From Candidatus Saccharimonadales bacterium (GTDB lineage: Bacteria; Patescibacteriota; Saccharimonadia; Saccharimonadales; UBA10212), in contig JBBRSU010000001.1 of assembly GCA_038245195.1 (NCBI GenBank), positions 64,121 to 128,120 on the forward strand: a stretch of 64,000 bases of DNA, in the 5' to 3' direction. The notes under the pieces were generated by a model that worked only from the letters and a program-made list of their open reading frames with translations, made no database searches and was not told the DNA's origin. Positions 32,021 through 50,409 of the stretch are shown here, piece after piece (positions within the stretch are counted from its first letter, which is position 1; the number at the start of each line of letters is the position of its first letter). A program made the translations under genes and the position numbers.

Positions 32021-32051
32021 TATATTGGAATATTATTCTCTATCCTAGTAA

Positions 32052-32565: not shown

Positions 32566-33015
32566 CTATTTACACTGGCCGGTCACAGTTTTCCCTTTCG
32601 GGCAGTCCTGAACACCGTTAATTACAAACTGAACAATGATCTGCGCGAACGCAACTATTACTAAGCCAACTAAGGCATATATTATCGTGTTCTTGGCACT
32701 CTTCGTGGCCTCGGCATTACCAGAGCTTGTAACATAACGGAAACCACCGACAATTAGCATAATCACTGCGGCGGCTCCAGCAAACACTGACATTATGTTT
32801 ATAACTGTTTTGATTGTATCGCTAACCGTCGTAGGTGCTCCGGATGGATCGCAATTTGCGGCGGTGCCATTGGCTTCACAGGTCCCACATTGAATCTGTT
32901 CTTTAGAACTTGCGGGTGCACTACAGTTGATTGCCGCATAAGCAGGCGACAAAGGGAACAGTGAGCCAGTGATTAGAGTCACAAGCAAAGTTATTTTTAT
33001 TATAAAGTTTTTCAT
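32566..33015 (-). CDS. VirB2/TrbC-like T4SS pilin paralog 3
   Basis: Signal peptide, four Cys, GGFRYVTSSGN...SAKNTIIYALVGLVIVAFAQ, plus an extra C-terminal Cys pair (DCPKGKTVTGQCK). Confidence 0.7.
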   Translation of the reverse strand: MKNFIIKITLLVTLITGSLFPLSPAYAAINCSAPASSKEQIQCGTCEANGTAANCDPSGAPTTVSDTIKTVINIMSVFAGAAAVIMLIVGGFRYVTSSGNAEATKSAKNTIIYALVGLVIVAFAQIIVQFVINGVQDCPKGKTVTGQCK

Positions 33016-33025
33016 ACTTACCTAT

Positions 33026-33433
33026 TTACTTTAACAGCCTATCTGTTACAAAAGAAATAGTGGTCCAAGCTAGAGCAACTATTATCAACCCAATTACAGC
33101 ATAAATAATTCTTTTTCTAGCGTTGGCTACAGCTTCGGCATTGCCCGAGGAAGTTATCATTGTAATACCGCCGAGAATTATATACACAACTGCAGCCACG
33201 CCAGTAGCAATTGCGATAATTTCAGTAGCGGTTTTAATAACTTTATTTACTGGATTAGTTGATGTACCCGAACCGATATCTTTACATACCGCACTGTTGG
33301 CCGCAGTGCTCCCCGATTTACAAATCTGAAATAATTGGCTGTTAGTGGTTGCTGCAAGTGTAGGACTTCCTAAAGCTAAAGTACTGTAGGCTATCAATGC
33401 TACCAGAAGAATTGCTGAAAATATTCTATTCAT
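33026..33433 (-). CDS. VirB2/TrbC-like T4SS pilin paralog 4
   Basis: Signal peptide, two Cys, GGITMITSSGN...NARKRIIYAVIGLIIVALA. Confidence 0.65.
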   Translation of the reverse strand: MNRIFSAILLVALIAYSTLALGSPTLAATTNSQLFQICKSGSTAANSAVCKDIGSGTSTNPVNKVIKTATEIIAIATGVAAVVYIILGGITMITSSGNAEAVANARKRIIYAVIGLIIVALAWTTISFVTDRLLK

Positions 33434-33705
33434 GGTGCTCTATTCAATACGAAATTCACAATTGTCGCTGCCAATGCTATTACCACTAAGCCCACGAGCG
33501 TATAAGTTATCATCCGCTTGGAATCAGCTACCTTAGTCGCGTCGCCCTGGGAAATAGTATAGCGGAATCCAGCAATCACTAGCATGAGTAGTGCGAGGGC
33601 TCCCATTATTCCCAAAATAATGTTGATAATGTTTGTGATGTCGTTAGCCTTGGCGTGTGGCAAGTTTGATGCGTCTACCAATATGGAAAAAAGGCCCATG
33701 CTCAA
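33430..33705 (-). CDS. VirB2/TrbC-like paralog 5 (short, no signal peptide or Cys region)
   Basis: 91 aa. AGFRYTISQGD...DSKRMITYTLVGLVVIALA. ATGA overlaps with both neighbours. Confidence 0.6.
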   Translation of the reverse strand: MSMGLFSILVDASNLPHAKANDITNIINIILGIMGALALLMLVIAGFRYTISQGDATKVADSKRMITYTLVGLVVIALAATIVNFVLNRAP

Positions 33706-34094
33706 CCTAACCTACTTCCAATAAATGAAACAGCCGCCGTAGCTACCAGCACCACTCCCAAGCCTAGCAATGAGTTAACTATTCTTTTACGCGAAGCTGT
33801 AATCTTATCAGAACTACCGGCAGCGGTTATGTAACTTATGCCTGCGACTATTATGGATATAACCGCCGCCAAGCCCGCTAAACGTAGTAGCATATCGATA
33901 ATTGCCAAGCCCACAAGCCAAGTATCACCTGGAAAATTAAAAGCCGGTACACACTTCCCCAGTGGGTCCTTTTCGGTCCCAAGATATTCCCACCAATGCG
34001 GGAAACCAAAAAATGAGCTCTTTGTTATAGTACAGACCGGTGCAGAAGCCGCCAGAAAAATGAACGGAATTTTTAGTAAAGCAAGCAGGTACAT
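33702..34094 (-). CDS. VirB2/TrbC-like paralog 6 (divergent, Trp-rich N-region)
   Basis: FFGFPHWWEYLG segment, two Cys, AGISYITAAGS...ASRKRIVNSLLGLGVVLVA. Confidence 0.55.
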   Translation of the reverse strand: MYLLALLKIPFIFLAASAPVCTITKSSFFGFPHWWEYLGTEKDPLGKCVPAFNFPGDTWLVGLAIIDMLLRLAGLAAVISIIVAGISYITAAGSSDKITASRKRIVNSLLGLGVVLVATAAVSFIGSRLG

Positions 34095-34538
34095 CTAGAG
34101 TCCCCCGGGAATTAGCCATTGCAGGAATGCAAAAGTGAAAATAAAAGCAACTAGTGCGATTAGACCATCTGATATTCGTTTCTTAGCCGCACCAGTTGCT
34201 GTTGAGTTATCTCCTGCGAGGCTATATTGAATGCCGCCAACAATAATTGAACCAATCACTACAATTGCCACGCCAGCCGATAAAAAGTTAACTATTAGGT
34301 TTATGTCCTTAACTATCGGGTCGGTTGCTATGCATTTTTGAACACCAACATCAGTAGAGTTATTACAGTTAGGGTTTGTCACTGTGGTGGTGGTAGCTGA
34401 GCCGCTAGTATCGCTCCCCGAGGAGTTGGATAACAATGCTAAAGTAGATGGAACAGTCATATTTAGACATATAAGAATCGCAGTCGCTAGAATTACTTTC
34501 TTAGATATTTGTTTTAGAGCTTTTTTCAATTGTTTCAT
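34095..34538 (-). CDS. VirB2/TrbC-like paralog 7 (first gene of the minus-strand array)
   Basis: Signal/anchor, Ser/Thr-rich region, two Cys, GGIQYSLAGDN...AAKKRISDGLIALVAFIFTFA. Its stop abuts the start of paralog 6. Confidence 0.6.
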   Translation of the reverse strand: MKQLKKALKQISKKVILATAILICLNMTVPSTLALLSNSSGSDTSGSATTTTVTNPNCNNSTDVGVQKCIATDPIVKDINLIVNFLSAGVAIVVIGSIIVGGIQYSLAGDNSTATGAAKKRISDGLIALVAFIFTFAFLQWLIPGGL

Positions 34539-34665: not shown

Positions 34666-37600
34666 ATGAAAACTTACAAAAAAATAAGTATTGGACTTAG
34701 CTTAGTGGTCGTGGTGCTATCGTTGTCTTTTGCTATTATAAGGCCCAGCTTAGCACTTGCCGATGCTACAGCCGGTGACCTGGGTGCTAGCATAGATACT
34801 TTCTCGGCTTTAGATTCGGCTACAATCAAGGCCAACTTAGGATCAAGTGGAACATATAACTTTATTGATAATAATCCGTATCCACAGGATTCTACATTTA
34901 ACTTTGTACCTCAGCCTAAAACCGTAGACGGACTGTGCGATCCCGGTAATGTGAAAGATCAAAATGGTGTGAGTGGATCAATAAAGTATGGGGTAACTCT
35001 ATTCCCAAACCCAAAAAATGCAACTGGACTTAAAGTCGATCCTATAAGTGCAGAAGTTAAATTAGGCTACACACCTGCTGGTGCACTTGGTTGTTCGGCC
35101 GTATTATTTAAAACCATGGTTAGCAACCCTAATGGGGTAGCGGCAGCAACTTATGAATATAGCGGGAATAATATTATTAACGCCCCAGGGTTCACTTCTG
35201 CCAACCTGAAGCCTGTTCCGAGTTCGAATAATGTATATGCCGCTGATACAACCGCCGGTACATGCGGTGGCGGTAACTTGATCGTAGTTAGTGCAACAAA
35301 CTTCAACTCTGGAACAAGATATGATCTAACATCGAATAAAAATAATGGTGGCCCAGGCACTGATGCTCATACTATTCCGGCCTTATCCAGTGTATTCCCG
35401 GCAGGCAATTGTTATTTAGCCCAAGCACCACTGGCTGAAACCATTGCCGGTTCGCCCGGCGGCACCGCCCCGGGTGGTACACCTGCCGGGGGGAATACCG
35501 TTGCCGATACTTCGTGTGAAGCACAATACACAGGTGCGGCCCACGTACTTAACTGGATTTTGTGCCCCATCCTGGATGGGATGGATTCAATATTCAACAC
35601 AATAAATGGGCAGGTCGAGGCACAATTGAACGTCTGCACGGGTATATCCAGTACAACAGGCTCGACCTGTGGTAATAATTTACTTACACCCCAAGTCAAA
35701 AAGTCGTGGGCAGTCTTCCGCGATCTGGCAACAGCTCTTTTAGTCATCGTTATGCTAATCATGGTTTTTTCACAGGCCATAAGTTTTGGGCCTTTCGATG
35801 CTTACACCGTTCGGAAAATGCTGCCCAAGATTGTTGCGGCGGTCATCCTCATGCAGATTTCTTGGCCACTTTTCAAATTTTTCGTAGACCTCTCGAACGA
35901 CTTGGGGCACGGTATACAGAATCTCATGCTTGCACCATTTGGTGGGACTGGTCAACTCCAATTCGATGCATTAATAGCAGCGGCAGGCAGCTTTGCACCT
36001 GCTGTTGCCACTGTTGGACTGTTTACAGCTTTAGCGATTGGAACCGTTCTTAGCGGTATTACGATTATGGGTGTGGCTCTATTAGGAGTTAGTGCAATTG
36101 CGTCGGTAATAGTTGGCCTTTTAGTATTACTTTTTAGGCAGATGTTAATAATTATGTCTATGATTCTGGCACCAATTGCACTTTTAGCCTGGATATTACC
36201 TGGTACTCAAAAATACTGGAAGCTCTGGAGCGATAACTTTATCAAATTATTATTTATGTTCCCGTTGATAATGGCTATGATTGCAGCTGGCAAGATTTTT
36301 GCGAAGATTGGTGTCGATACTGGTACTGGTATATTCGGAGTTATTATTGTTTTTGTTGGTTTCCTGGGGCCACTGTGGTTCTTGCCGAAAACCTTCAAAT
36401 GGGGCGGCCAAGTATTTGCTGCGGCTGCCAATGGTACCATGGGGGCTACCAAGAACCTGCGTAATTCTCCTGGTAAATATGCGCTATCTGGCGCAAAGAC
36501 TAACCGTGAACAGCGTGGCTTTGATCGTGCAGAGCGATTGGCTAATAACAGGGGAAGACGCTTTGATAGTGTTTTTGCCGGCAGATTCAATAGGACATTA
36601 GGCCAATCCGCTTTAAGAAATAGGTTCCAGGATACTCTAGAAAAAGGTCGCAAAGCCGCTGATGAGGCAGCTCAACGCTCAACACTTGGCGGTCCATATG
36701 AGAGATTAGACCACCCTGATAAAGTTGGCGCAGACATACTTGTAGCTCAAGGAAAACTCGACACTCAGTTTGGTACGGGCATGGATGGGCGACATGCCGC
36801 GACCCAGCGAGCGGCACTTGAGCGACTAGCTAAATATGGTGACTGGGACGCTATCTCTGCAGTCAGAGATGGGGGTTACATGGGCGAAGAGGGTGAACGA
36901 GTTTGGCAAGATTTTGTAGCAAAGAATATCAGTGCAATTCACCAAAACACTCCGCACCTTTCACCGCAGCGTACAGATCTAAGTGTATTAGGCCGAAGAG
37001 AATTCTCGGCAGTTAAAGATTATGAATGGGAAGAGTATACCCGTGCTGCCGAGAGCGGACTAACTCGTAACGGCACCACCGGCTTGCCTGAGCCTGCGGG
37101 TGACCAAATAGGCCAGCGGTCCCGATTTATTGCTCAAGCTAAAGCGATGGAAGCAGACACTCAGTTTATGGCGACCGTAAGTCAACGTGGGCAAGAAGCA
37201 ATTGCTCGTGTAGCAGCTTTGAATAACTGGAGTCCAAACGTCAGCTTAGAAGGAGGGGCACTTCACCTGCCTGTACAGGCGTTCGAGTCGACAGCTACAC
37301 CCGAGGAAAGAACAGAAGCATTGCAAAGTATTAATGATCATTTGTTTAGACTTACCCCCGACGGGAAACCGACTAATGCCGCCAAATCAACTAGATCCGA
37401 GCTCGGAAGATTGCTGGGTAGCGGTACTTTACCCGCCAATGCCCAAACCGCGTTAGAAAATCATTTGGTAGACATCCGATTGCAGGCTGCCAGTTCACCG
37501 CAAGCTAAAGAAGTATACGATGATGTAGTAGGCAATATTGAAGGCGAGTTGCGAAACCGGGATGCTAGGATTCGCGCTGGTGTTGCCTCAGAAGTCCGAG

Positions 37601-37695
37601 CTACCCCAGCGAATGTTGAAGCTGCAAGCAATGTGGTGCAAGGCCAGGTAAATGAAACTCGCACAAGAATGCGCAGTAAGGGCTTGGACGTATAG
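34666..37695 (+). CDS. giant VirB6/TrbL-like polytopic membrane protein (secreted N-domain, ~6 TM core, ~400-aa cytoplasmic C-domain)
   Basis: Signal/anchor, an N-terminal domain of about 300 aa with Cys residues, then a dense TM block around aa 345-590 typical of VirB6-type channel proteins. The C-terminal domain is unrecognisable. The call rests on topology and context. Confidence 0.55.
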   Translation: MKTYKKISIGLSLVVVVLSLSFAIIRPSLALADATAGDLGASIDTFSALDSATIKANLGSSGTYNFIDNNPYPQDSTFNFVPQPKTVDGLCDPGNVKDQNGVSGSIKYGVTLFPNPKNATGLKVDPISAEVKLGYTPAGALGCSAVLFKTMVSNPNGVAAATYEYSGNNIINAPGFTSANLKPVPSSNNVYAADTTAGTCGGGNLIVVSATNFNSGTRYDLTSNKNNGGPGTDAHTIPALSSVFPAGNCYLAQAPLAETIAGSPGGTAPGGTPAGGNTVADTSCEAQYTGAAHVLNWILCPILDGMDSIFNTINGQVEAQLNVCTGISSTTGSTCGNNLLTPQVKKSWAVFRDLATALLVIVMLIMVFSQAISFGPFDAYTVRKMLPKIVAAVILMQISWPLFKFFVDLSNDLGHGIQNLMLAPFGGTGQLQFDALIAAAGSFAPAVATVGLFTALAIGTVLSGITIMGVALLGVSAIASVIVGLLVLLFRQMLIIMSMILAPIALLAWILPGTQKYWKLWSDNFIKLLFMFPLIMAMIAAGKIFAKIGVDTGTGIFGVIIVFVGFLGPLWFLPKTFKWGGQVFAAAANGTMGATKNLRNSPGKYALSGAKTNREQRGFDRAERLANNRGRRFDSVFAGRFNRTLGQSALRNRFQDTLEKGRKAADEAAQRSTLGGPYERLDHPDKVGADILVAQGKLDTQFGTGMDGRHAATQRAALERLAKYGDWDAISAVRDGGYMGEEGERVWQDFVAKNISAIHQNTPHLSPQRTDLSVLGRREFSAVKDYEWEEYTRAAESGLTRNGTTGLPEPAGDQIGQRSRFIAQAKAMEADTQFMATVSQRGQEAIARVAALNNWSPNVSLEGGALHLPVQAFESTATPEERTEALQSINDHLFRLTPDGKPTNAAKSTRSELGRLLGSGTLPANAQTALENHLVDIRLQAASSPQAKEVYDDVVGNIEGELRNRDARIRAGVASEVRATPANVEAASNVVQGQVNETRTRMRSKGLDV

Positions 37696-37704
37696 GTATA
37701 ATCT

Positions 37705-39123
37705 ATGTCATCGCCTGAAAATCCTCAATCAAATTCGCAAGAACCAAGCTATAGCAGAGGCGATCCCGTACGCGTTTACCGTGAAAGAGACGGCACCATC
37801 CAACCCGAAGATGATTGGGAATATAGATTGTATGACGAGTGGAAAGATCACGAGGTGGCTTCTAGGCATAACGAAGAAGGTGGAGTAACCGAATTTGAGC
37901 ACACTCCAAAAAAAGTATTTGATAGTTGGCAAAGAGAAAAAGCCGCCGCCGAATCCGGCAGGCTAATAACTGAGGGTTCCGTCGTGACTTCTGGGAAAGT
38001 AGCGGAAATAATTCTCAGAGATGAAGCAGATTTAGTTGACAATTCTCATACCCCTCCGATCGAATCAGACATGGATGGCTCACCGGAAGAACCAATAGAA
38101 AAGCCGACTAATCGCATTGATAGCGAACCCGATGATCTGACTGATATCCCCGAAGAGGTCCGAGAATTGTCAGAAAAACATGGATATCCTATTGAAGTAT
38201 TTTTACGAGCACAAACCGATCCCGACATTGCTGATATCTTAAGGAGTAAAGGTATTGATTGGGGTGCAGTGCACGACTCCGCAGAATTATCAGAGGACAC
38301 ACATCATGAAGTTACTCAATATCAGCTTGATAAGGCTGAGAAATTACACGGGGTCCGAGTATCAGCTGAGAATATCAGATTCGCAAGGCTAGAAGCACAA
38401 CAAGGCAATCTTCGGCCAGCGGATTACTTGGCGGGCGTTGGAGTTGACTTAGGTTTTCCGCGCCTAGATCCGCCAGATCCTGTCATACGTTTGAGTGAGG
38501 TCGGTCGGAAACGCCGTGAGGATGTAGTGAGATTAATAGCTCGTATCGAAGAAGACCCGGCGGAAGTAAAAAAATCACTTAGACGCCCCGGAGAGTTACC
38601 CATAGGCCTACTAAATCTTTCACCTATACGAGCGGTCAACAAAAGGTTATTAGCTTGGAAAATATCTAGAAAAGAAATTAATGACCGGCCCGGTGTTATT
38701 AGTAATTTACAGGCTGAGTATGCAGCCCTAGAGGCTTTGGGGGACAGGGACGAACTACAAGAAAAAGAATTTAAGAAGTTAGAATCGCAAATTAGTAAAC
38801 TCAAAAGTCAACAATATAATGATGGGCTACTCGGACTAGGATTACCTAAATATGTTCTTTACCGCGATTACATTAATCGGCTTGATGAAAGCGTAAAAGC
38901 ACATAAACGAAGGTTAGGCTTATTGCAGCGCCATAAGCTAAAAGACTCAGTTACAACGCGTCGAGATCTCGCATATAGAATCTCAGATAGCGACAGGTCA
39001 GTGAAGGATTTGAGCAGAGGTGTAATACATGATTACGATAATCCAGAAAGTGTGCATGACCACGAAAGATTTAAAAACGATAACTCATTGTTCAGGACCA
39101 GTCTCGATAAAAGAAACCGATGA
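37705..39123 (+). CDS. hypothetical soluble acidic/coiled-coil protein within the T4SS operon
   Basis: 472 aa with no TM segment, no NTPase motif and no recognisable family. Starts 9 nt after the upstream gene. Confidence 0.55.
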   Translation: MSSPENPQSNSQEPSYSRGDPVRVYRERDGTIQPEDDWEYRLYDEWKDHEVASRHNEEGGVTEFEHTPKKVFDSWQREKAAAESGRLITEGSVVTSGKVAEIILRDEADLVDNSHTPPIESDMDGSPEEPIEKPTNRIDSEPDDLTDIPEEVRELSEKHGYPIEVFLRAQTDPDIADILRSKGIDWGAVHDSAELSEDTHHEVTQYQLDKAEKLHGVRVSAENIRFARLEAQQGNLRPADYLAGVGVDLGFPRLDPPDPVIRLSEVGRKRREDVVRLIARIEEDPAEVKKSLRRPGELPIGLLNLSPIRAVNKRLLAWKISRKEINDRPGVISNLQAEYAALEALGDRDELQEKEFKKLESQISKLKSQQYNDGLLGLGLPKYVLYRDYINRLDESVKAHKRRLGLLQRHKLKDSVTTRRDLAYRISDSDRSVKDLSRGVIHDYDNPESVHDHERFKNDNSLFRTSLDKRNR

Positions 39124-39190: not shown

Positions 39191-40192
39191 ATGGCTGTAT
39201 ATAAGGTAATTCAAGATGTCGAGGCCGAGGACAAACTACTTGGCCCTCTAAGCTTTAAGGCATTTATTTACGCAATCATTGCCGGCCTTTGCGGATTTAT
39301 AAATTTTAAACTGTTGTTTTTAGGGACTCCCATTAAGTGGGCAATTATGCCTCTCCTCTCATTCCCTATGATTCTTTTCGGCGTTTTGGCATCACCCCTA
39401 GGCCACGATCAGCCAACCGAAGTTTGGCTTTTATCAAGAATCAAGTTTTTCCTAAAGACAAGAAAACGAATTTGGGACCAGGCAGGCTTAGAAGAACTGG
39501 TGACAGTAACAGCTCCTAAGAAACTAGAACAGCATCTTACTAAGGATATTACTCAGAGTGAGGTCCATAGCCGACTCAAGACCTTAGCTAGTACTTTAGA
39601 CACCCGCGGCTGGGCAATCAAAAACGTCGATACAAACCTTAACACAACCGTACCCAATAACCCGGGGCTAAGCCAATCATCTGATAGGCTGGTGGCAAAT
39701 GCTGGGTATACACAGCCGGCGACGGTTATTGATGTACGACCAGCCGATGATATTTTAGACGAACAAAACAACCCCACCGCTCAAAAATTCGCCAGCCTTA
39801 TGCAGCAGGCTGATTCGAATCGCAAACAAACGGTTTTAGAAACCATGCAAAACTTAATTAACGACGATGACCAAGGTGATGGCATTAAATTATCCGATGC
39901 AAATGACTTCCAAAGCCGAATGGCCAAGGCTAGGGCTAGCTTTAGTAACCAGCACAGCAAAGATTCAAAACATGCTAATTCACAACATAAAGTTATTGAT
40001 TCAAAAAACGTCCACCACGAACCGCCAAAAAAAGCTGAGCCAACCCCGATGACAAGCGAACGCCAAGCTGTTAATATGGAGTTAGCCCAAAGCGGTAGTG
40101 CTTTTAGTGTATCGACTTTGTCTCAGCTGGCCAATCGCCAGCCCCGGATGGAGCAAACTGGGCCCAACGAAGTTACGATTTCACTGCACTAG
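39191..40192 (+). CDS. PrgI-family (VirB3-like) membrane protein with long C-terminal extension
   Basis: The N-terminus MAVYKVIQDVEAEDKLLGPLSFKAFIYAIIAGL..., two TM helices, then DQPTEVWLLSRIKFFLKTRKRIW match the PrgI/VirB3-analog pattern of monoderm T4SSs. Confidence 0.55.
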   Translation: MAVYKVIQDVEAEDKLLGPLSFKAFIYAIIAGLCGFINFKLLFLGTPIKWAIMPLLSFPMILFGVLASPLGHDQPTEVWLLSRIKFFLKTRKRIWDQAGLEELVTVTAPKKLEQHLTKDITQSEVHSRLKTLASTLDTRGWAIKNVDTNLNTTVPNNPGLSQSSDRLVANAGYTQPATVIDVRPADDILDEQNNPTAQKFASLMQQADSNRKQTVLETMQNLINDDDQGDGIKLSDANDFQSRMAKARASFSNQHSKDSKHANSQHKVIDSKNVHHEPPKKAEPTPMTSERQAVNMELAQSGSAFSVSTLSQLANRQPRMEQTGPNEVTISLH

Positions 40193-40237: not shown

Positions 40238-41101
40238 ATGAACCCAGCTAGTCAACCAACTACCAACACGCCTGGCCCTCAGCCAGTTTATTCTGGTGAG
40301 GATTTTGTACCAGGTACAGTTAATGCACCCAATGCACCAGGTATAGTCCCCCCACAGCAATCTATTACCAACCCTAACAGTACCCAAAACGCCCTTCAGA
40401 TTAGTGAAATACGCGACGGCATAGTGATTATGAACGACGGCAGTTTTAGAGCAGTAGTAATGTGTAAGTCCATTAATTTCGATTTAATGAGCCCCCAGGA
40501 ACGTGAAGCCGTAGAGTTTAGCTACCAGGGCTTCCTAAACTCCCTATACTTCCCAATCCAAATTTTTGTAAGAAGCCAAAAAGTCGATATGCGTCCCTAC
40601 CTGGAAAAACTCGATAAAATCCGGACTGGCCAGGATAACATGTTGCTGGGTTTGCTTATGGAAGACTACATCGCATTCCTGGCTGACATCGTCCAGCAAA
40701 CAAACATTATGGATAAGAAGTTTTACATAGTTATAAAATTCCCAGATGTTGAAGTTGATGTGCGTAAAGCCTTAAAACAAAGCACCAGTTTCTTTACCGG
40801 CTTAGGCGAGCTATTTAGCTCCGGCAAAACCGCACATGTAACAATCGATGAGTCTACCTTAGAAAAAGCCAAAACCGAGCTTCGTAACCGGGTCCAGGCT
40901 GTTATGCAGGGCCTGGCTCAGTGCGGAGTACAAAGTTTGCCGTTGGATACCGAGGAGTTAATTGAGCTTTACTACGATGCCTACAACCCCGATACCGCCA
41001 CTCGGCAACAGATTAAAGACTTTAAAGACTTAACTGCACCGGTGATTTCAAAGGGCGTGGGCCCAGCACCTCAGCCTAATTTAAATGGAGGCCCAAGCTA
41101 G
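40238..41101 (+). CDS. VirB4 N-terminal-domain-like protein (separate ORF)
   Basis: ISEIRDGIVIMNDGSFRAVVMCKSINFDLMSPQEREAVEFSYQGFLNSLYFPIQIFVRSQKVDMRPYLEKL resembles the first ~200 aa of monoderm VirB4/TcpF/Orf16-type ATPases. Its stop TAG shares one nt with the GTG start of the ATPase. Confidence 0.5.
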   Translation: MNPASQPTTNTPGPQPVYSGEDFVPGTVNAPNAPGIVPPQQSITNPNSTQNALQISEIRDGIVIMNDGSFRAVVMCKSINFDLMSPQEREAVEFSYQGFLNSLYFPIQIFVRSQKVDMRPYLEKLDKIRTGQDNMLLGLLMEDYIAFLADIVQQTNIMDKKFYIVIKFPDVEVDVRKALKQSTSFFTGLGELFSSGKTAHVTIDESTLEKAKTELRNRVQAVMQGLAQCGVQSLPLDTEELIELYYDAYNPDTATRQQIKDFKDLTAPVISKGVGPAPQPNLNGGPS

Positions 41102-43005
41102 TGGCACTACCATTTGGTAAAAAAAATCCGGCACCGATTGATCCGATAGTCATGGAGAAGCAAGAGGTTGCGGCCGCGTTTGCCAAGGGGGTGACTGCAC
41201 TACGCGATTTTATTGCACCAAGCTCGCTACAATTTGACGGTAACTTCTTCCATCTAGGCACCCGCTATGCCAGGACCTACTATGTTTACGGCTACCCCCG
41301 CCAGCTATACACCGGCTGGTTATCGGGAATGGTTAACTTAGACGAAGTAATTGATTTATCAATGATTGTCCAGCCGGTTGATAGCCAAGTGGTACTTAAT
41401 AATTTACGCAAAAAAGTCAGCCAGCTGGAGGCCGGTATCCAGATTAACTCCGAAAAAGGCAAAGTACGCGACCCCGGTATGCAGGCCGCCGTGCAAGACG
41501 CTGAAGAACTACGCGACAAATTGCAGGTCGGCGAAGAGCGGTTTTTCCGCTTTGGTTTATATTTTACAATTTACGGTAATTCTTTGGAGGAGCTGGAGTT
41601 TATCAGCCATAAAGTTGAGAGTATGCTGGGCCAACAACTGGTTTATTCCAAGCCGGCCAGCTCCCAGCAAGAACAAGGCTTATCTAGTACAGTCCCTCAG
41701 TTTATGGACCAGCTACAGATTTACCGAAACATGAATACCGGTGCGATATCTACCACCTTTCCATTCACATCGGCCGATTTGACCCAAGACAACGGTATTT
41801 TATACGGCATTAATATGCATAACTCCGGTTTGGTTATTTTTGATAGATTTAGCCTAGAAAACGGCAACAGTGTGGTGTTCGCCAAGTCTGGTGCCGGCAA
41901 AAGCTTTACCGTAAAACTAGAAGCCCTGCGGTCAATGATGTTCGGCACTGAGGTATTTATCATCGACCCCGAAAACGAGTACCAAAAAATGTGCGAGGCC
42001 GTGGGTGGCGCCTATGTCCGGCTGAGCTTAAACTCGTCCACCAGAATAAACCCCTTCGATCTACCCCAAGTAATCGATAACGACGAAGCCGACAACGCAC
42101 TCCGTTCAAACCTAATAACACTTCACGGATTGCTTCGCCTGATGATGGGCGGTGCCCAGGCCCAAATGCTCCAAGGTGGGGTTACCACTATGCCAGCACT
42201 GAACCCGGCCGAAGAAGCCGACTTAGATGCTGCTTTAATTGAAACTTACGCTAAAGCCGGTATTACCAACGACCCACTTACCCACGGCTCAACTCCTCCA
42301 ACCATTAGCGACCTATACGACACGCTGCTTCATATGGGTGGCACCGGCCCACAGCTAGCCCAACGTTTGCGTAAGTATACTTCAGGAACATTTGCGGGCA
42401 TCTTCAGCCAGCAAAGCAATGTGAATGTGAATAACCCAATGGTAGTATTCAATATTCGAGACCTTGAGGATGAACTACGACCCGTAGCAATGTATATTGT
42501 GCTGAATCATATTTGGAATCGAACTAAGATCGATAAAAAACGGCGTATGTTAATCGTCGATGAAGCCTGGCAACTAATGCGCTATGAAGACAGTGCCAAC
42601 TTTATGTTTAGTATTGCGAAGCGGGCCAGGAAATATAACTTAGGCTTAACTACCATCACCCAAGACGTCGAAGATTTTATGGCCTCGCGGATGGGTAGGG
42701 CAATTGTGGCTAATGCCAGTATGCAATTCTTATTAAAACAATCGCCGTCAGCCGTTGATGTACTATCTGATGTGTTTAAGCTAACCAGCGAAGAGAAGAA
42801 ACGCCTCAGCCAATTCCCGGTTGGCCAAGGGTTGTTCTTTGCTGGCCAAAACCATGTGCACATTCAGGTTATCGCCAGCCCCACCGAAAACGAGCTGATC
42901 GCAACAAACCCCTCCCCTACGAAACCAGCACTGCAGGGCGAAGTTAATTTCCAGTCACAGTCGACCTCCGTTACGACACCGCCTTCTCAACAAGGTGCTG
43001 TATAG
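41101..43005 (+). CDS. virB4: VirB4-family T4SS ATPase
   Basis: YARTYYVYGYPRQLYTGWLSGM, Walker A KSGAGKSF (about 41881-41910), Walker B MLIVDEAW (about 42547-42570) and a TTITQDVEDF sensor-like motif. Confidence 0.88.
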   Translation: MALPFGKKNPAPIDPIVMEKQEVAAAFAKGVTALRDFIAPSSLQFDGNFFHLGTRYARTYYVYGYPRQLYTGWLSGMVNLDEVIDLSMIVQPVDSQVVLNNLRKKVSQLEAGIQINSEKGKVRDPGMQAAVQDAEELRDKLQVGEERFFRFGLYFTIYGNSLEELEFISHKVESMLGQQLVYSKPASSQQEQGLSSTVPQFMDQLQIYRNMNTGAISTTFPFTSADLTQDNGILYGINMHNSGLVIFDRFSLENGNSVVFAKSGAGKSFTVKLEALRSMMFGTEVFIIDPENEYQKMCEAVGGAYVRLSLNSSTRINPFDLPQVIDNDEADNALRSNLITLHGLLRLMMGGAQAQMLQGGVTTMPALNPAEEADLDAALIETYAKAGITNDPLTHGSTPPTISDLYDTLLHMGGTGPQLAQRLRKYTSGTFAGIFSQQSNVNVNNPMVVFNIRDLEDELRPVAMYIVLNHIWNRTKIDKKRRMLIVDEAWQLMRYEDSANFMFSIAKRARKYNLGLTTITQDVEDFMASRMGRAIVANASMQFLLKQSPSAVDVLSDVFKLTSEEKKRLSQFPVGQGLFFAGQNHVHIQVIASPTENELIATNPSPTKPALQGEVNFQSQSTSVTTPPSQQGAV

Positions 43006-43016: not shown

Positions 43017-46000
43017 ATGGCCCAGGGGATAAGAAATAAAAAAAACGCTAACGAACTTGGCGACAAAAATAACCAGGAGGAATTAGTCTCCCCCGGAGAA
43101 GCTAAAGAGCTGCAACAGCTATTTAATTTACCTTCTGCTAGGTTGTCAGATAATAATTCAAACTCTACCGAATCGACTAACTCAGAAGATAGCGACAAAA
43201 AACTTACAAGAAATGATATAGAACAAGCTGAAGCCTCTGGAGGAGACCAGAGTGAAAATGCCTCTACGGAAACAGGCCCTACGGGGTCGCCCCAGGAGCA
43301 AGCATATGAGGACAGGGTCGGAAAGGGATATACGGGGGATAAAGGAAGTGCTTCAAATCGAGCTAGAAACTATAGAAGAATAGCCGCAGTTGGCGGTCTT
43401 ACTGGTGCAATTATTACGATAATGGTATTACTATTCAACTTTCTAAATGTATTTAAATTGGATGGGCTAATGTCAAATATCGAACAGAAGTCATTTTTGA
43501 GACACAACGCATCATTAAACACTCGCTCGAGTAAGTGGATATCGGCCTATGTCGAAGCACGAATGATGCAGTTCGGAGACAACCCAACTAAAAATCCTCT
43601 ATTCAGAAGTAATCGTGTTGATACTAACAGCCCTTTCACTGACTGGTATAGAACATTGCGTGCCTCTAACTTTGAACAAGATGTTTTTGAAAAACATGGT
43701 ATTAAGTTTACATCCTATTTTGATGCTAATGGTTCACCTAGACTCGGTAAAATTGATATAAGCGTCGCCGGCACAACGGACTCTATGAATCTAAAAATCC
43801 CGGATGGCGACCTTGAGGCAATAGCTAAAGGAGATCTGAAGGTTTTAAGTAATTATCAAGACTATTTTAATATGGAAAAGTTAGATAGCCATAAAGCAGG
43901 TCGACAGGCTATAAAAAAGGTTGTTAATGATAATACCCACTGGTCACAGGTATACAAACGAAGGTTTTTAAGAAGATCAATCCAGAACATGACCGGTGTT
44001 CGTAGTTGGCGTTTCTTTGAGAATACTCGTGATAAAATAACTGCTAAAAAACTCGATATTCGAAATAGGATTATCACTTACATGGTGCCGGATTCGAATG
44101 TTCTAGGTAGGGTAACTCGCTGCTTATTCGGGATTGATAATTGCACTCCAAGTCGTGACACGGCGGATCCAAAAGAACAGGTTAATGTTACTAGCGACGA
44201 ATTTGGGGCCCAGCAGCCGACTGATACGAGCACCCAAGCTCAAAAAGATGCCGAAAAAGCGCTAGCTACTGAATCAACTAAATTAGATGAAGCTGCTCTC
44301 TCGGAAACATTGCGAAATGTTTTGAAGAATGCAGGAATAATTAATCAGATTATTAACATCCCAAATACATTGGACATGTTTGCGAGTATAGACAAAGGAG
44401 TCCAGCACCTTGTGAAATACGTAGTTATCGCACGGGGCGCCCAAGCGGCCGGGCTTTTCCAGGTTTTTCAAACATCGCGAGACCAAATTAAAACTGGTCA
44501 AGTGAGCAGTGAAGAAGTTAACGCATTTATGCAGGGGATAGACACCGCGGGCAGTAGTGCCGCTTACAGCCAAGTTATAAGCGGTAACAGTACTACCCAG
44601 CCCGGTACCACTCAAAGCGGTGGTCAGTGCACACAAGCCGCTCAAGCCCTACAAGAGAAAGACCCCCAAGCTTATCTTAAGCAATTCAAAACGGACTATG
44701 CCCCGCTGTGTGCCGACCAGCAAATCGGTAGTGCCTCAAATGCTCAAAAAATTCAGGATGCCTATGATAATGGGCCTAAACAGGTGGTCCATCCAATAGT
44801 TGCATTATGGGAGTCAGCGAAAAGCAATGGATTCTTCGGGGCGATAATTAATGCCGTGGAGTGGTTCACGAATCATATATTTAATGCGTTGGCTAGTACG
44901 TTAAACGCTATCCTTGACATACTTGGGCTGAAGGGCGATTTTCAAGGTTTAGTAACTTGGGTTTTTACTAAAGTATCCAGTTTTCTTGGAGTTTCAATAT
45001 TAAAAGGTTATGAATCTGCTGGCACATTATTCAACTGGCTGGTCCAAGGTGGGGCATATTCAGCGGAATCGTCTAGCAGACAGGAGGGAGCCGCAGTGAC
45101 TAACACTGCAAGCCAAGCTAGTGCACAAAATACGATCGCACAATACATTACTGATAAGCGTACCCAGACCAGTCTTTACGATAAGTTGGCGTCACTTAAT
45201 AACCCTGATTCTCTTGCTTTCAAGGGAGCGACAATGCTAAGCAATACTAAAAGTGACCCTAGCACTGCTTTGATGGCGGGAATACACAGCTTATGGACTG
45301 GGGCTATTAAAAATATGGGAGCAATATTTAGTGGCCGACTTTTAGCAGCCTCGTCAAACGGATACGCCGCCAGTCAGTTTGCGGGCATAGAGACATATGA
45401 CTACCCCCAGAAGTGTTACGACCTAGACCCAATCACCGAGCAACCAATTGACGGCACGAATGCACCAGATATCTTACGACAGAATAATATTTCAGTACCT
45501 GAGTCACTTTATAATTGGGATACCGAACGAAGCTCAAGTATGTTTTATGCCGCGATTTATGCCGCCATTGGAGAAAACACGACAGATGGAGATAATATCG
45601 CAGTCCAGATTTATAACTGCAACCTACTTGATACCGCCGTTCGGGGCAGTCTTGGCTACTTATACGGCTACAATGCCGACGCTACATCTCAAGTTATTGA
45701 TAGTACGAACTCCACAAGCGGAGGCTCAGGCGGCACAACCCCAGGAGGTTGTGGAGGCAGTGGCAAATACTCCGCCATCGTAGATAACGGCGCAAGCTTC
45801 GCAGGCATTGACCAAGGCATTGATTTCACACCTCAGACCAGTGCCGGTTTTAATATTTGTGCACCGGGTCCCGGCACAATAACGCTTGCTGACCAAACCG
45901 GTCACAAGTTTGAAAAAACTGATGGGACGGCCGAGATAATAGAAAGGCTGGATGCACCTCCAGGCCCGATACCAAGCATCAGTCGCCAATTTATATATTA

Positions 46001-46196
46001 TGCAGAAATTATTCAGCTTGATGGGGCGATAAAAGTCGGCGCCCATGTCGCTAAGGGTGATCTGATAGGACACAATAATAAAAGCCCGGGGATAGAGGTT
46101 GGCTGGGCTCCTAGTGCAACAGCCGGCTTTGGCTGCTCCGTAGGTGGACAAACGGCATGCGGAACTGATTTCAATGATTGGGTCCAGGTGCAGTAG
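43017..46196 (+). CDS. large membrane-anchored extracytoplasmic protein with C-terminal LytM/M23-like (non-canonical) domain
   Basis: Single TM (IAAVGGLTGAIITIMVLLFNFL) after a cytoplasmic N-tail of about 120 aa. The C-terminus IDQGIDF...PGPGTIT...GDLIGH...GIEVGWAP is paralogous to the C-terminus of the next gene. Confidence 0.55.
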   Translation: MAQGIRNKKNANELGDKNNQEELVSPGEAKELQQLFNLPSARLSDNNSNSTESTNSEDSDKKLTRNDIEQAEASGGDQSENASTETGPTGSPQEQAYEDRVGKGYTGDKGSASNRARNYRRIAAVGGLTGAIITIMVLLFNFLNVFKLDGLMSNIEQKSFLRHNASLNTRSSKWISAYVEARMMQFGDNPTKNPLFRSNRVDTNSPFTDWYRTLRASNFEQDVFEKHGIKFTSYFDANGSPRLGKIDISVAGTTDSMNLKIPDGDLEAIAKGDLKVLSNYQDYFNMEKLDSHKAGRQAIKKVVNDNTHWSQVYKRRFLRRSIQNMTGVRSWRFFENTRDKITAKKLDIRNRIITYMVPDSNVLGRVTRCLFGIDNCTPSRDTADPKEQVNVTSDEFGAQQPTDTSTQAQKDAEKALATESTKLDEAALSETLRNVLKNAGIINQIINIPNTLDMFASIDKGVQHLVKYVVIARGAQAAGLFQVFQTSRDQIKTGQVSSEEVNAFMQGIDTAGSSAAYSQVISGNSTTQPGTTQSGGQCTQAAQALQEKDPQAYLKQFKTDYAPLCADQQIGSASNAQKIQDAYDNGPKQVVHPIVALWESAKSNGFFGAIINAVEWFTNHIFNALASTLNAILDILGLKGDFQGLVTWVFTKVSSFLGVSILKGYESAGTLFNWLVQGGAYSAESSSRQEGAAVTNTASQASAQNTIAQYITDKRTQTSLYDKLASLNNPDSLAFKGATMLSNTKSDPSTALMAGIHSLWTGAIKNMGAIFSGRLLAASSNGYAASQFAGIETYDYPQKCYDLDPITEQPIDGTNAPDILRQNNISVPESLYNWDTERSSSMFYAAIYAAIGENTTDGDNIAVQIYNCNLLDTAVRGSLGYLYGYNADATSQVIDSTNSTSGGSGGTTPGGCGGSGKYSAIVDNGASFAGIDQGIDFTPQTSAGFNICAPGPGTITLADQTGHKFEKTDGTAEIIERLDAPPGPIPSISRQFIYYAEIIQLDGAIKVGAHVAKGDLIGHNNKSPGIEVGWAPSATAGFGCSVGGQTACGTDFNDWVQVQ

Positions 46197-47519
46197 ATGT
46201 TTAAGCTTTTGGATAAATCGAAGAGGTTAAAGCTTGATAACTCATTGTTTATATTAGTGGCTTGCATTATCTTCCTTGGTCCCGTTAGAGTGAGTTTTGC
46301 TGCTACTTTACCTAGTGATGACACCAATAGTATTTATAATGACACGGTTTGGTACGACCCTAGCAATAGCGTCAGCAATAGCTCGGCATATGACTGTTCT
46401 ACCACCTATGGTTCTGTGTCGACCACCCAAGCCCAATCAGATATTATTAAGATCATAATCGGCATTGCTAAAACAGATAATCTTGGCAAGACTGGAGCTG
46501 TAATCGGCCTGATGGCTGGCGATGATGAGTCGGGTTTTAAAATATTAGCAAATTCCAATGTGCCAGTTTCACTTAGTATCCCCAACCAGGGGGTTGGGAG
46601 TAACGGAAACTCAGTGGGAGTCTTCCAGCAGCAGCCAAATTACGGATGGAGCACTATAGACACCGGAACTTCTGCGCTTACCAATCGCGCAGCTCTTGCA
46701 CAGCTAATGGATCCCGCCTATTCAGCTGAGGCATTTTTTGGAAGCCCCGCGGGTTCCAACGCACCGAGTGCTCTTAGTAAAGGATTACAGAATATTAACT
46801 GGAAATCAATGAGCCCCGCTGAAGCGGCTTCGACAGTACAAGGTAACCTCGCTGGTGCATCGGTTTATGCCAATTTTCAAGCGGACGCCGAAGCATTTGT
46901 GAACCAATACTGGGACTCCAGCCCGGCGGTACCTTTACCCGTACCCCTAAATAATACTGGCACTCCGGGCACTGACATATCTGGGGCTCAGCTATGTTCT
47001 GGGAGTACCCCACTTGGTACCTATAAAAATCCGTTTCGTGCGATTCAGCAAGCGGGAAAACTTAGAGCGGAACGAATCGATGAAGGCGTAGACTATGGTG
47101 GCGAAGGCCCAGTATATGCACTAGGCGATGGAAAAATTACAAACCTTACTAACTCCGGATGGAATTTTGGTGGCTATGATGCATTCGTAGGAGAGCTGTT
47201 AACTAGTGGCCCGGCTAAGGGTTTGTATGTATATATGGCTGAGGCCTGCGTACCTAGAGCAAGCCTACAGATTGGGGATGTCGTAAATGCGGATACAATT
47301 ATCTGCGATATGATAAATCCTACGGATACTGGGATTGAGACGGGTTGGGCAGCACCTCCAGGTGTCGGTGCTGCAATAGCTAACGGCCAATACGACAAAG
47401 GAGCTACAGCATATGGTGTTAATTATAATCAGCTCCTAGTAAAACTGGGAGCTCCCTCGGGGATTAATGAAACTAATTCAGTAACGGGAACCCTGCCAAC
47501 CGGCTGGCCGAAATGGTAG
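46197..47519 (+). CDS. secreted cell-wall hydrolase-like protein: lytic-transglycosylase-like N-domain + LytM/M23-like (non-canonical) C-domain (VirB1/PrgK analog)
   Basis: Signal/anchor. The DDESGF ... VGVFQQQP ... AYSAEAFF spacing recalls the SLT motifs E-S / GLMQ / AY. The C-terminus is IDEGVDYGGEGPVYALGDGKIT...GIETGWAAP. Confidence 0.55.
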   Translation: MFKLLDKSKRLKLDNSLFILVACIIFLGPVRVSFAATLPSDDTNSIYNDTVWYDPSNSVSNSSAYDCSTTYGSVSTTQAQSDIIKIIIGIAKTDNLGKTGAVIGLMAGDDESGFKILANSNVPVSLSIPNQGVGSNGNSVGVFQQQPNYGWSTIDTGTSALTNRAALAQLMDPAYSAEAFFGSPAGSNAPSALSKGLQNINWKSMSPAEAASTVQGNLAGASVYANFQADAEAFVNQYWDSSPAVPLPVPLNNTGTPGTDISGAQLCSGSTPLGTYKNPFRAIQQAGKLRAERIDEGVDYGGEGPVYALGDGKITNLTNSGWNFGGYDAFVGELLTSGPAKGLYVYMAEACVPRASLQIGDVVNADTIICDMINPTDTGIETGWAAPPGVGAAIANGQYDKGATAYGVNYNQLLVKLGAPSGINETNSVTGTLPTGWPKW

Positions 47520-48243: not shown

Positions 48244-49284
48244 TTATAAAGGGATGAGGTTGTGGGCTTCGGAGAAGTATTCTAGGACGGCTTCGGCGTC
48301 GGTGGTGGTGATAATTGTTTGGTAGTTTCTTAAACTAGCTACAAGGGCCCGGCGTCGGGAGCCGTCTAGTTCGGAAAAAACATCATCCAGTAAAAAAATT
48401 GGTTTTTGGTTGCGGGCATTTTCTATTAAACCTAACTCGAAGATTTTTAGTGCCAGTAGCAGGCTGCGGGTTTCACCGCGTGATGCACTTTGGCTGACTA
48501 GCTGGCCGTTAAGACTAAATAAAAAATCTTCACGGTGCGGCCCGTAGGCCGTAAAGCCACGCTCAAAATCGGCGGGCGCATGGTCCTCCAACTTCGATAA
48601 CAATCGGCTAGCATAATTGTTCACTGGGAACTGGCTGTCGTATTTAAGCTCAACTTTAGACTTATGTTTGGCGATCTGGCTATAGTTTTTGGCGAGCGTC
48701 TTATTAATTTCATCAGCTAGGTCCTGACGAGCTAAAGCAATTTGGGAACCTAGTTGGCTGAGCCGGACATCCCACGCAAACAGCTGCTGGACGGCCTGGC
48801 GACGTTTGTACTTAAGCAAAGCGTTGCGTTGAGCCAAGGTGCGTTTGTAGCCAGCCGACAAGCTCTTAAAAGCCGGTAGGCTGCGTTCCAGTAAGTCATC
48901 GAAGTACTCACGGCGTTGGTCTGGCCCCCGAGTCATAAGTTGCAAATGGTTTGGCTCAAAGTAAACTACCGGCACCGTTTTTTCTAGACTAAGCCGCTTA
49001 TATGGATTATCGTCAATGATAAAACTTTTGGCCGAAGGTTCAATCTTGGCCGTTCTGGTATGTTTTTCAAATGCTCCTTCCAGTCGGGCCCAGGGCTTAT
49101 CAAATTTAATCAGCTCAGCATCGCGGGCTCGGTATGAGCTAGCCCTGCACAGCACTAAGACTGCTTCTAAAAGATTCGTTTTCCCGCTGGCATTTGGCCC
49201 AACCACAATATTAACGCCTGGGTCGAATTCAAAAGACTCATCTGAGTAAGACCGGAAGTTCTGGAGCCTAAGTGATGTAATCAT
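48244..49284 (-). CDS. recF: DNA replication and repair protein RecF
   Basis: LRLQNFRSY, Walker A GPNASGKTNLLEA, an SGGE-like signature and LLDDVFSELD Walker B. Confidence 0.93.
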   Translation of the reverse strand: MITSLRLQNFRSYSDESFEFDPGVNIVVGPNASGKTNLLEAVLVLCRASSYRARDAELIKFDKPWARLEGAFEKHTRTAKIEPSAKSFIIDDNPYKRLSLEKTVPVVYFEPNHLQLMTRGPDQRREYFDDLLERSLPAFKSLSAGYKRTLAQRNALLKYKRRQAVQQLFAWDVRLSQLGSQIALARQDLADEINKTLAKNYSQIAKHKSKVELKYDSQFPVNNYASRLLSKLEDHAPADFERGFTAYGPHREDFLFSLNGQLVSQSASRGETRSLLLALKIFELGLIENARNQKPIFLLDDVFSELDGSRRRALVASLRNYQTIITTTDAEAVLEYFSEAHNLIPL

Positions 49285-49317
49285 TAGCCCTAGCTTACAG
49301 CTTTAGCCAAAGGGGTT

Positions 49318-50409
49318 CTAGCTTCGGAGGGGCATTATTAGATGAAGATAATTTGGTTCGCTGGCTGAGCGTAAAATGCAGGGTTCTAGCTTTCCATTAA
49401 AACAAAATTCAATTTCCTCTGACGAAAACACATTAAGTGCCTCGATTAAATATCGTGAGTTTAAAGTTACCTCGCCACCGCCAATAACACTAGCTTCGGC
49501 CGTGGCAGTATTTTCACCTAGTTGTGAGGCAATGGCATTGATACTCACTACTTTTGCGTCTTTGTCAGCTTTGATAGTGATGCTACCAGCACTTTCTCTA
49601 GCAAACAAACTAGAAACTTTAGCTATGTTGAGTAAATCGGCCCGAGCAAGTTTGGCAACCGTTTCGAATTTTGCCGGGATTAACTTGCGGTAATCCGGGT
49701 AATTGCCTTCAATTAATCGAGCCACCAAGCTAACATCACCAACCTGGAATAAAACTTGCTGATCATCATGGGTGACCACCACTTCTTTTTCGGTATCGCT
49801 GATTATTCGCAGTAAATCTTGGGCGGCACTGGCCGGCATAAGGAAGTTAATAGCCTTAGCTGATTTGGTTATTTTAGTTTCGGCTAAACGATAACTGTCG
49901 GTGGCCACAGCCATAGCTTGGCCGGCGGTGCTATGAAAATAAACTCCATTTAATACTGGTCTGGAATCATCGGCACTGGCCGCAAACACAACTTGAGATA
50001 AAGCTTTTTTAAAATCTCCAGCAGGGCTTTTCCAGGTCACACCCCCTTTAATGGCCGGCATAACCGGGAAGTCATCGGCCACAATTCCATTAATAGTCGA
50101 CTGGTACTGGTCGTTATTTATGTGAAGCTTATTCTCCGTAAGCTCTAGGTTTAAAATACTATCCGGCAAGCTACTCACAAAGTCTTGCATTAAACGAGCC
50201 GGAACCGTTATAGCCCCGTCTTGGCTGATTTTTGAGCCTATAAAATGGGTGATACCAATATCTAAGTTAGTGGCCGCGATACTCAGCCGGTTGTTCTCAG
50301 TTTTTAGTAGCACGTTTGAAAGTATCGGTAGAGTATTGCGAGTATTAGCCACACGGGCAACGGTGCTTAAGGCTTTGGCTAAGTTGGCTTGGGTAACTTG
50401 AAGCTTCAT
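49318..50409 (-). CDS. dnaN: DNA polymerase III beta subunit (sliding clamp)
   Basis: Three-domain clamp pattern (LPILSNVLLKTENNRLSIAATNLDIGI...). Conserved dnaA-dnaN-recF synteny. Confidence 0.95.
   Translation of the reverse strand: MKLQVTQANLAKALSTVARVANTRNTLPILSNVLLKTENNRLSIAATNLDIGITHFIGSKISQDGAITVPARLMQDFVSSLPDSILNLELTENKLHINNDQYQSTINGIVADDFPVMPAIKGGVTWKSPAGDFKKALSQVVFAASADDSRPVLNGVYFHSTAGQAMAVATDSYRLAETKITKSAKAINFLMPASAAQDLLRIISDTEKEVVVTHDDQQVLFQVGDVSLVARLIEGNYPDYRKLIPAKFETVAKLARADLLNIAKVSSLFARESAGSITIKADKDAKVVSINAIASQLGENTATAEASVIGGGEVTLNSRYLIEALNVFSSEEIEFCFNGKLEPCILRSASEPNYLHLIMPLRS

Follow-up and report, generated by a model that had tools for sequence, protein, structure and literature searches.

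A VirB4 ATPase very probably made as two polypeptides, a TrsD-like protein and a short VirB4, in a chromosomal type IV secretion system of Saccharimonadales

A TrsD-like gene overlaps a short virB4 gene by one nucleotide

We analyzed a 64,000-nucleotide stretch of DNA from a Candidatus Saccharimonadales bacterium (assembly GCA_038245195.1, contig JBBRSU010000001.1, positions 64,121–128,120; hereafter the window, with positions counted from its first letter) that carries a type IV secretion system (T4SS) locus. Two adjacent open reading frames (ORFs) in this locus encode a TrsD-like protein (ORF1) and a short form of the VirB4 ATPase (ORF2). A preliminary description of the same DNA had proposed that VirB4 is split here into a free-standing N-domain ORF and an ATPase ORF joined by a 1-nt overlap, and had offered three readings: a genuine two-polypeptide VirB4, a paralogous adaptor built from a duplicated N-domain, or a recent frameshift or sequencing artefact. 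The split is borne out by the complementarity of the two ORFs and by its conservation at 80 related loci, and the first reading gains support from homology, complementarity, collinearity and conservation. We consider it very probable that VirB4 is made as two polypeptides, TrsD-like ORF1 and short ORF2, in a chromosomal MPF-FATA-like T4SS of monoderm type. This split is the known TrsD/TrsE-type organisation, is ancient, and has already been published for Patescibacteria as a hallmark of their T4SS. The features of the gene pair are as follows.

40238–41101, plus strand: ORF1, TrsD-like protein of 287 amino acids (aa), ATG start, from the ORF listing and translation
41087–41091, plus strand: GGAGG, a Shine-Dalgarno (SD)-like motif inside the last codons of ORF1, from direct reading of the DNA
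41099–41103, plus strand: TAGTG stop/start junction, a 1-nt overlap and a signature of translational coupling
41101–43005, plus strand: ORF2, short-form VirB4 ATPase of 634 aa, GTG start, from the ORF listing and translation

Re-reading the DNA gave the coordinates, starts and sizes that had been reported. The junction reads ...GGA GGC CCA AGC TAG TGG CAC..., in which the G at 41101 is both the final base of the ORF1 TAG and the first base of the ORF2 GTG; the shared G and the difference in frame are thus as first described, with ORF2 in the -1 frame relative to ORF1. The distance from GGAGG to the GTG is 9 nt. The ORF2 frame extends upstream of the GTG for just seven open codons (from 41080, after a TAA at 41077–41079), and the GTG is therefore the only sensible start for ORF2. 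No membrane segment was predicted in either ORF1 or ORF2, whereas the PrgI-like protein encoded upstream has one.

ORF2 is predicted to begin at the second N-terminal sub-domain of VirB4

ORF2 scored 363.9 bits against the NCBIfam CD1110 VirB4 model (NF045971, cut-off 325), above the curated threshold for the VirB4 family, and its Pfam matches were P-loop_TraG (PF19044, 94.3 bits against 25.8), AAA_10 and DUF87. It matched the VirB4 C-terminal domain of PDB entry 4AG5 with an E-value of 1.6e-47. The Walker motifs that had been noticed in ORF2 lie within this P-loop C-terminal domain:

41890–41904, plus strand: Walker A, GAGKS, ORF2 aa 264–268, aligning with the P-loop of 4AG5
42553–42570, plus strand: Walker B region, IVDEAW, ORF2 aa 485–490, aligning with VVDEAW of 4AG5

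The N-terminal end of these matches is displaced. ORF2 aa 32–587 correspond to positions 185–733 of the 752-position CD1110 model, and the matches to three other models begin at positions 293 of 894 (Mbov_0397), 258 of 800 (TraC-F) and 215 of 792 (VirB4_CagE). By BLASTP, ORF2 aa 38–586 aligned with residues 237–779 of a fused 816-aa VirB4 from Enterococcus faecium (E 3e-66). The block opening ORF2 (Y.RT..v.gyP..l..GwL), taken in the preliminary description for the next conserved block of VirB4, aligned with residues ~250–275 of this fused protein. Because all model matches begin so late, ORF2 is without the first ~185–235 residues of full-length VirB4, a part that, judging from the alignments below, is supplied by ORF1. 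A complete VirB4 N-terminal domain (NTD; ~400 aa in TrwK, with CD1110 positions 1–185) was accordingly not found in ORF2, which we interpret as a VirB4-family ATPase comprising the second NTD sub-domain and the P-loop C-terminal domain.

ORF1 resembles TrsD and the first N-terminal sub-domain of VirB4

The preliminary description had recognized a VirB4 N-domain pattern in ORF1, and model comparisons agreed with it. ORF1 aa 50–168 matched positions 2–121 of the CD1110 VirB4 model (E 2.7e-7), and aa 201–257 matched positions 118–175 of the TraC-F model (both NCBIfam). Against the TrsD/TraD model NF041427, ORF1 matched positions 21–144 of 201 (E 4.7e-7). A local Pfam scan, even at E≤10, returned nothing but a sub-threshold TraC_F_IV match, and a phmmer search of ORF1 against PDB sequences gave no match.

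We built a profile of the ORF1 family from 76 diverse homologues and one of full-length VirB4 from 42 CD1110-type proteins of 750–870 aa. With hhalign, the ORF1 profile aligned over aa 38–255 with residues 36–219 of the 816-aa E. faecium VirB4 (95.4% probability, E 1.7e-8), and with the first NTD sub-domain (A) of fused VirB4 taken alone it reached 97.8% (E 4.7e-12). When a lone sequence, the PrgJ-like VirB4 from an E. faecalis plasmid, was set against the ORF1 profile, the alignment was not significant; the ORF1–VirB4 signal needs a profile on both sides. The ORF1 profile also aligned with residues 31–216 of the 227-aa TrsD of Staphylococcus aureus (92.7%, E 4.3e-7). ORF1 thus has both near-full-length homology to TrsD and the position of TrsD, after a VirB3-like gene and before a short virB4.

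Structure prediction pointed in the same direction. The AlphaFold2 (AF2) model of ORF1 had a mean pLDDT (predicted local distance difference test score) of 81.5 and a pTM (predicted template modelling score) of 0.71, with low confidence at residues 1–45, which are disordered and rich in P and Q, and in an insert at residues 170–204 (pLDDT <65). When the model was searched against the PDB with Foldseek, the top 14 matches were all to TrwK/VirB4 of R388 (E 3e-4 to 9e-3, probability 0.99–1.00, ~186–216 aligned columns), and lower-ranked matches were noise. The Foldseek output came without the matched TrwK residues, and we therefore rely on the sequence profiles for assigning ORF1 to the first NTD sub-domain. 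Profile, fold and order of secondary-structure elements all place ORF1 with this sub-domain.

Members of the ORF1 family are named 'hypothetical protein' in NCBI records, and the cluster look-up gave no other name. The 120 best ORF1 homologues (P0001–P0120) all carry a precomputed label, PF26593.2, which is absent from the fused VirB4 proteins; scanning the identical sequence locally with Pfam-A (E≤10) did not return it, and we found no mention of it in the literature.

The two ORFs are complementary and collinear with full-length VirB4

When both ORFs were aligned to full-length VirB4, ORF1 proved homologous to its N-terminus, the point on which the preliminary description had let the split depend. 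The order ORF1 then ORF2 was the same in the CD1110, Mbov_0397 and TraC-F models, and the 816-aa fused VirB4 was covered as residues 36–219 (ORF1 profile) plus 237–779 (ORF2). The ORF1 profile showed no similarity by hhalign to ORF2 (E 0.46) or to the second N-terminal sub-domain (B) of fused VirB4 (E 0.68). Because ORF1 maps to 36–219, ORF2 maps to 237–779, and ORF1 resembles neither ORF2 nor sub-domain B, the alignments indicate that the two are complementary, collinear pieces of VirB4 rather than a VirB4 accompanied by a duplicated domain. According to the AF2 model of the 816-aa fused protein (P0271, pLDDT 87.6), the strand and helix order of residues 45–213 equals that of ORF1 residues 49–249, and the break point between the ORFs, at residues 219–237, falls between this sub-domain and the one at residues 242–405.

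These comparisons bear on the second reading, in which ORF1 arose by duplication of a VirB4 N-domain and acts as a paralogous adaptor beside a complete VirB4. The homology of ORF1 to the VirB4 N-terminus fits such an origin, as does a likeness within the fused model: its NTD halves, 45–213 and 242–405, have a like order of elements (three strands, helix, strand, two helices, strand, helix, strand, helix), which hints at an ancient internal duplication, although hhalign detected no sequence similarity between the halves. However, ORF2 starts at ~185/752 or ~237/816 of full-length VirB4 and so is altogether without the domain that ORF1 represents, the ORF1 profile is unlike both ORF2 and sub-domain B, and the window holds no second VirB4 or ORF1 copy. 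We rejected this reading, which we consider very unlikely.

The split is conserved across Saccharibacteria

A word-indexed search returned at least 7999 homologues of ORF1, of which the best 120 (72–100% identity) were all 235–297 aa long and came from Candidatus Saccharimonadales or Saccharibacteria. When representatives clustered at 50% identity were searched exhaustively, 2401 clusters passed E≤1e-3; among the 150 that matched best, which reach down to ~35% identity, all lengths lay within 99–478 aa, and none was VirB4-sized.

We then compared the junction at 80 loci from different GTDB species at 64–85% identity. In 80/80, the ORF1 homologue ended at a stop and was followed by a separate ORF2 homologue; the two were fused in 0/80, and the comparison thus turned up no single uninterrupted ORF of the kind by which the preliminary description would have recognized a pseudogene or assembly error. 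The commonest class of junction was a 1-nt overlap (TAATG, TGATG or TAGTG, 30–36 loci), with TAGTG in five. In 4–6 loci the junction was ATGA; ~16 had a spacer just a few nucleotides long, and ~21 had one of 90–460 nt. Relative to ORF1, ORF2 was in the -1 frame in 46 loci, the +1 frame in 24 and the same frame in 11, and a purine-rich SD-like motif preceded the ORF2 start in 66/71 related loci. This pattern fits two long-standing cistrons that are, to judge from their junctions, usually translationally coupled.

That the pair is a recent frameshift, a pseudogene or a sequencing or assembly indel in an originally ~920-aa virB4 would account for two ORFs that abut in different frames and are jointly collinear with full-length VirB4. 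Yet the 80 loci keep the genes separate with varied junctions and frames, and sequencing error or a recent frameshift is therefore incompatible with them. The lengths of the 150 best cluster representatives and the good SD motif before the GTG also speak against an indel, as does the cultured Southlakia ML1 genome, in which the 1-nt overlap is identical. We rejected this third reading as practically negligible.

A programmed -1 ribosomal frameshift at T_TTA_AAT (41080–41086) could instead yield a minor full-length VirB4 beside the two separate products; the fusion product would hold the junction peptide ...PNLNWRPKLVALPF. The heptamer fits X_XXY_YYZ in the ORF1 frame and lies exactly where the ORF2 frame opens (41080). 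But any such heptamer occurred in the doubly open stretch of just 5/46 loci with ORF2 in the -1 frame, at differing positions and with differing sequence, and in 35/81 loci a long spacer precedes ORF2 or its frame is a different one. Nor does T_TTA_AAT belong to the heptamers known for efficient slippage in bacteria. We took the heptamer to be a chance occurrence, not a conserved site, and regard programmed frameshifting as extremely unlikely here.

The ~21 of the 80 loci with longer spacers (L002, L005, L009, L019, L026, L030, L042 and others) carry insertions between the genes, and the translations of these show mirrored motifs (KWLMVN / FTV...). Insertions with mirrored motifs measure 90–210 nt, and their sequence suggests short palindromic repeat elements or hairpins. 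In one spacer (L035:4786–5172) a 128-aa ORF resembling a four-helix bundle is found instead. We considered a conserved small gene in these long spacers and discarded it, as ORFs in the spacers lack conservation and resemble palindromic repeats in translation.

TrsD-like proteins precede short VirB4 ATPases outside the Patescibacteria

A tblastn search of ORF1 against plasmids matched 93 records, mostly from Bacillota, under small genes annotated 'hypothetical protein' or 'TrsD'. Gene pairs comparable to ORF1 and ORF2, with the order PrgI, TrsD-like protein, short VirB4, were found on the following plasmids:

Staphylococcus aureus pPR9: TrsD of 227 aa and short VirB4 of 672 aa, in the order PrgI, TrsD-like, VirB4
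Bacillus cereus pH308197_73: TrsD of 345 aa and TrsE of 627 aa, in the order PrgI, TrsD-like, VirB4
Pontibacillus sp. ALD_SL1 megaplasmid (L082, 350529–361224): TrsD-like protein of 274 aa and short VirB4 of 621 aa
Clostridium perfringens pJFP838A: TrsD-like protein and short VirB4 present
Miltoncostaea (actinomycete): TrsD-like protein and short VirB4 present
Haloplanus (haloarchaeon): TrsD-like protein and short VirB4 present, PrgI not annotated in the record

The Pontibacillus TrsD-like protein matched the ORF1 profile at 99.9% (hhalign), and its VirB4 is 36% identical to ORF2 and begins at the same point. The genes there run pilin-like gene, large membrane protein, small PrgI-sized ORF, TrsD-like gene, virB4 and M23 peptidase, and such gene content shows that monoderm T4SS loci with pilins and a split VirB4 also exist outside Patescibacteria. 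The best match to ORF2 (36.5%) lies in an unannotated region of plasmid p1 of Streptomyces sp. BHT-5-2 (H41); this and the Pontibacillus megaplasmid are the closest relatives from outside the candidate phyla radiation (CPR) that we found in plasmids.

In the staphylococcal TrsD/TraD and TrsE/TraE pairs (pGO1/pSK41 type; pPR9) and in plasmids of B. cereus and B. thuringiensis, as here, a small soluble homologue of the VirB4 N-terminus is encoded after a VirB3-like gene and directly before a VirB4-like ATPase of 620–670 aa. The identity between ORF1 and TrsD is very low (~22%). The Trs plasmid systems are conjugative and have a relaxase and a coupling protein, whereas the locus in the window is chromosomal, lies by dnaA and has a pilin array; no relaxase or type IV coupling protein was recognized in its cluster, though no systematic search for either was made. 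The CD1110 VirB4 and the PrgJ of pCF10-like plasmids (750–820 aa) are likewise collinear with ORF1 plus ORF2 and directly follow PrgI, but are one polypeptide instead of two. TrwK/VirB4 of R388 (PDB 7O41, 7O42, 8RTB, 8RTD), part of which matches the predicted ORF1 fold and to which the C-terminal domain of ORF2 is homologous, differs in belonging to a diderm system, as a single 823-aa chain with 9–14% identity.

Gene boundaries vary further among these relatives. Enterococcus plasmids carry a single VirB4 of 796–816 aa directly after PrgI, and in four Bacillota proteins of 924–935 aa (P0296, P0305, P0353, P0372) PrgI (PF12666) is itself fused to VirB4. These sequences show the boundaries between the PrgI, NTD and ATPase modules to be evolutionarily labile. 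As to direction, a fission or, in the other lineages, a fusion may have occurred.

Assembly of a two-chain VirB4

The pair and its relatives have been described in Patescibacteria, where, of all T4SS components, homologues of TrsD are the most abundant (Quinonero-Coronel et al., 2025, Microb Genom 11:001409, PMC12102498). That study counted 2272 TrsD homologues across 2221 assemblies, and 1664 of the homologues were associated with virB4; it noted that the MPF-FATA TrsD profile retrieves CPR proteins, that TrsD has remote similarity to the VirB4 N-terminus, that the homologues have no assigned function and that the Southlakia ML1 homologue is essential (PMC12102498). The main text of Guglielmini et al. 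(2014) does not contain 'TrsD', and we thus cite the TrsD/VirB4 homology via the 2025 paper only. In Southlakia, Table S1 of Wang et al. (2023, Cell 186:4803) lists SEML1_0009 (12272–13153, 882 nt, 293 aa, 'hypothetical protein') and SEML1_0008 (10434–12272, 1839 nt, 612 aa, K12063 VirB4/TraC), both scored essential. Nucleotide 12272 is shared by the two genes, which gives the same 1-nt overlap as in the window.

Gene pair, abundance and essentiality are therefore already in print, and our analysis opens no new question. The papers of 2023 and 2025 do not spell out that the adjacent VirB4 is without exactly the TrsD part, and the small addition made here is the explicit, exact complementarity of the pair to full-length VirB4, with the break between two structural sub-domains.

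We propose that the TAGTG overlap and the GGAGG motif inside ORF1 couple translation of the two ORFs, which would give coordinated, near-equimolar synthesis, and that the TrsD-like protein and the short VirB4 would then assemble non-covalently into a complete, functional VirB4 protomer. The gene directly upstream of ORF1 encodes a likely membrane anchor for the VirB4 N-terminal module:

39191–40192, plus strand: PrgI-family (VirB3-like) membrane protein, 333 aa, PF12666 (E 8.2e-8, 33.1 bits against a cut-off of 27)

Its hydrophobic segment has a maximum KD19 of 2.0. In the R388 structure, VirB3 is wrapped about the VirB4 N-terminal domain (PMC9259494). Because of this contact, and because PrgI is encoded directly upstream, the surface on which PrgI/VirB3 docks, and by which the soluble ATPase would be tethered to the membrane complex, probably lies at least partly on the TrsD-like part. 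The machine probably serves the epibiotic lifestyle and not conjugation; both Southlakia orthologues are essential.

Several observations weigh against a VirB4 completed by ORF1. ORF1 falls far below the NCBIfam cut-offs for TrsD (29.8 against 200 bits) and for the VirB4 models; by the NCBI threshold it would be a remote TrsD homologue and not a member of NF041427. With its disordered N-terminus and 170–204 insert, it is ~90 residues longer than its counterpart in fused VirB4. The Gracilibacteria homologues of TrsD are mostly not adjacent to virB4 (PMC12102498), and an obligate partnership of TrsD and VirB4 is therefore not universal. The Gracilibacteria arrangement and the lineage-specific additions to ORF1 could mean that the TrsD-like protein has acquired a separate role, for instance regulating or chaperoning T4SS assembly or the pilins, and does not simply complete VirB4. 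We think this unlikely, given that adjacency to virB4 and translational coupling are tightly conserved in Saccharibacteria, that the complementarity with full-length VirB4 is exact, and that ORF1 follows PrgI just as the N-terminus of fused VirB4 does.

A two-polypeptide VirB4 might also be put to use. By analogy with the 'central' and 'outside' VirB4 of R388, only some VirB4 protomers, such as the PrgI/VirB3-bound ones, might receive a dissociable TrsD-like subunit, or this subunit might act as a gate on the assembly or activation of the essential epibiont T4SS; we consider such exploitation speculative and improbable. If it did occur, occupancy of the VirB4 N-domain would be a regulatory step that is impossible for a single-chain VirB4. 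The T4SS of Saccharibacteria is essential for epibiotic growth, and knowledge of a two-chain motor aids annotation of this 'hypothetical protein' family; in structural work, both chains must be co-expressed.

Genes surrounding the pair

VirB4, a TrsD-like protein, PrgI/VirB3 and VirB2-like pilins occur together near dnaA, as in MPF-FATA-like T4SS loci of Patescibacteria. The remaining features of the locus are these:

31595–34538, minus strand: seven tandem VirB2-like T4SS pilin genes (PF18895, E 1.4e-15 to 3e-4)
34666–37695: polytopic ORF of 1009 aa, putatively VirB6-like by position, no Pfam or NCBIfam match
37705–39123, plus strand: acidic ORF of 472 aa between the 1009-aa ORF and the PrgI-like gene, no Pfam or NCBIfam match
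43017–47519, plus strand: two large ORFs (1059 and 440 aa) after virB4, no Pfam or NCBIfam match
48244–52032, minus strand: recF-like gene, dnaN and dnaA, directly downstream of the T4SS cluster (5–9 kb)

With dnaA at 50653–52032, ~7.6 kb from the end of ORF2, the locus lies beside what is presumed to be the replication origin, a location also reported for many Patescibacteria. Gene set and order agree with those of the Patescibacteria T4SS described in 2025 and of Southlakia epibionticum SEML1_0006–0019 (pilins, large VirB6-like protein, PrgI, TrsD homologue, VirB4 and cell-wall hydrolase-like proteins, near dnaA), the VirB6-like and hydrolase-like members being putative in the window. In Southlakia ML1 no equivalent of the extra 472-aa ORF of the window lies between SEML1_0011 and PrgI; otherwise nothing substantive differs.

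The pilin array, a typical part of Saccharibacteria T4SS loci, is oriented divergently to the T4SS operon. Sequence divergence is greatest in its two operon-nearest copies, which do not reach the Pfam gathering score, and one copy scored 38.6 bits, just under the cut-off of 40, against the 'Mbov_0395 pilin-like' family of a Mycoplasma integrative and conjugative element. The only FtsK-like protein seen (13491–15680) has the FtsK alpha and gamma domains of a chromosomal translocase.

We infer VirB6-like and VirB1-like hydrolase roles for the 1009-, 1059- and 440-aa ORFs from position, hydrophobic stretches and synteny with Pontibacillus, and these roles are putative. In the syntenic Pontibacillus locus, the gene downstream of virB4 is annotated as a DD-metalloendopeptidase (M23), and by eye the C-termini of the 1059-aa and 440-aa ORFs have the look of degenerate M23/LytM-type peptidases.

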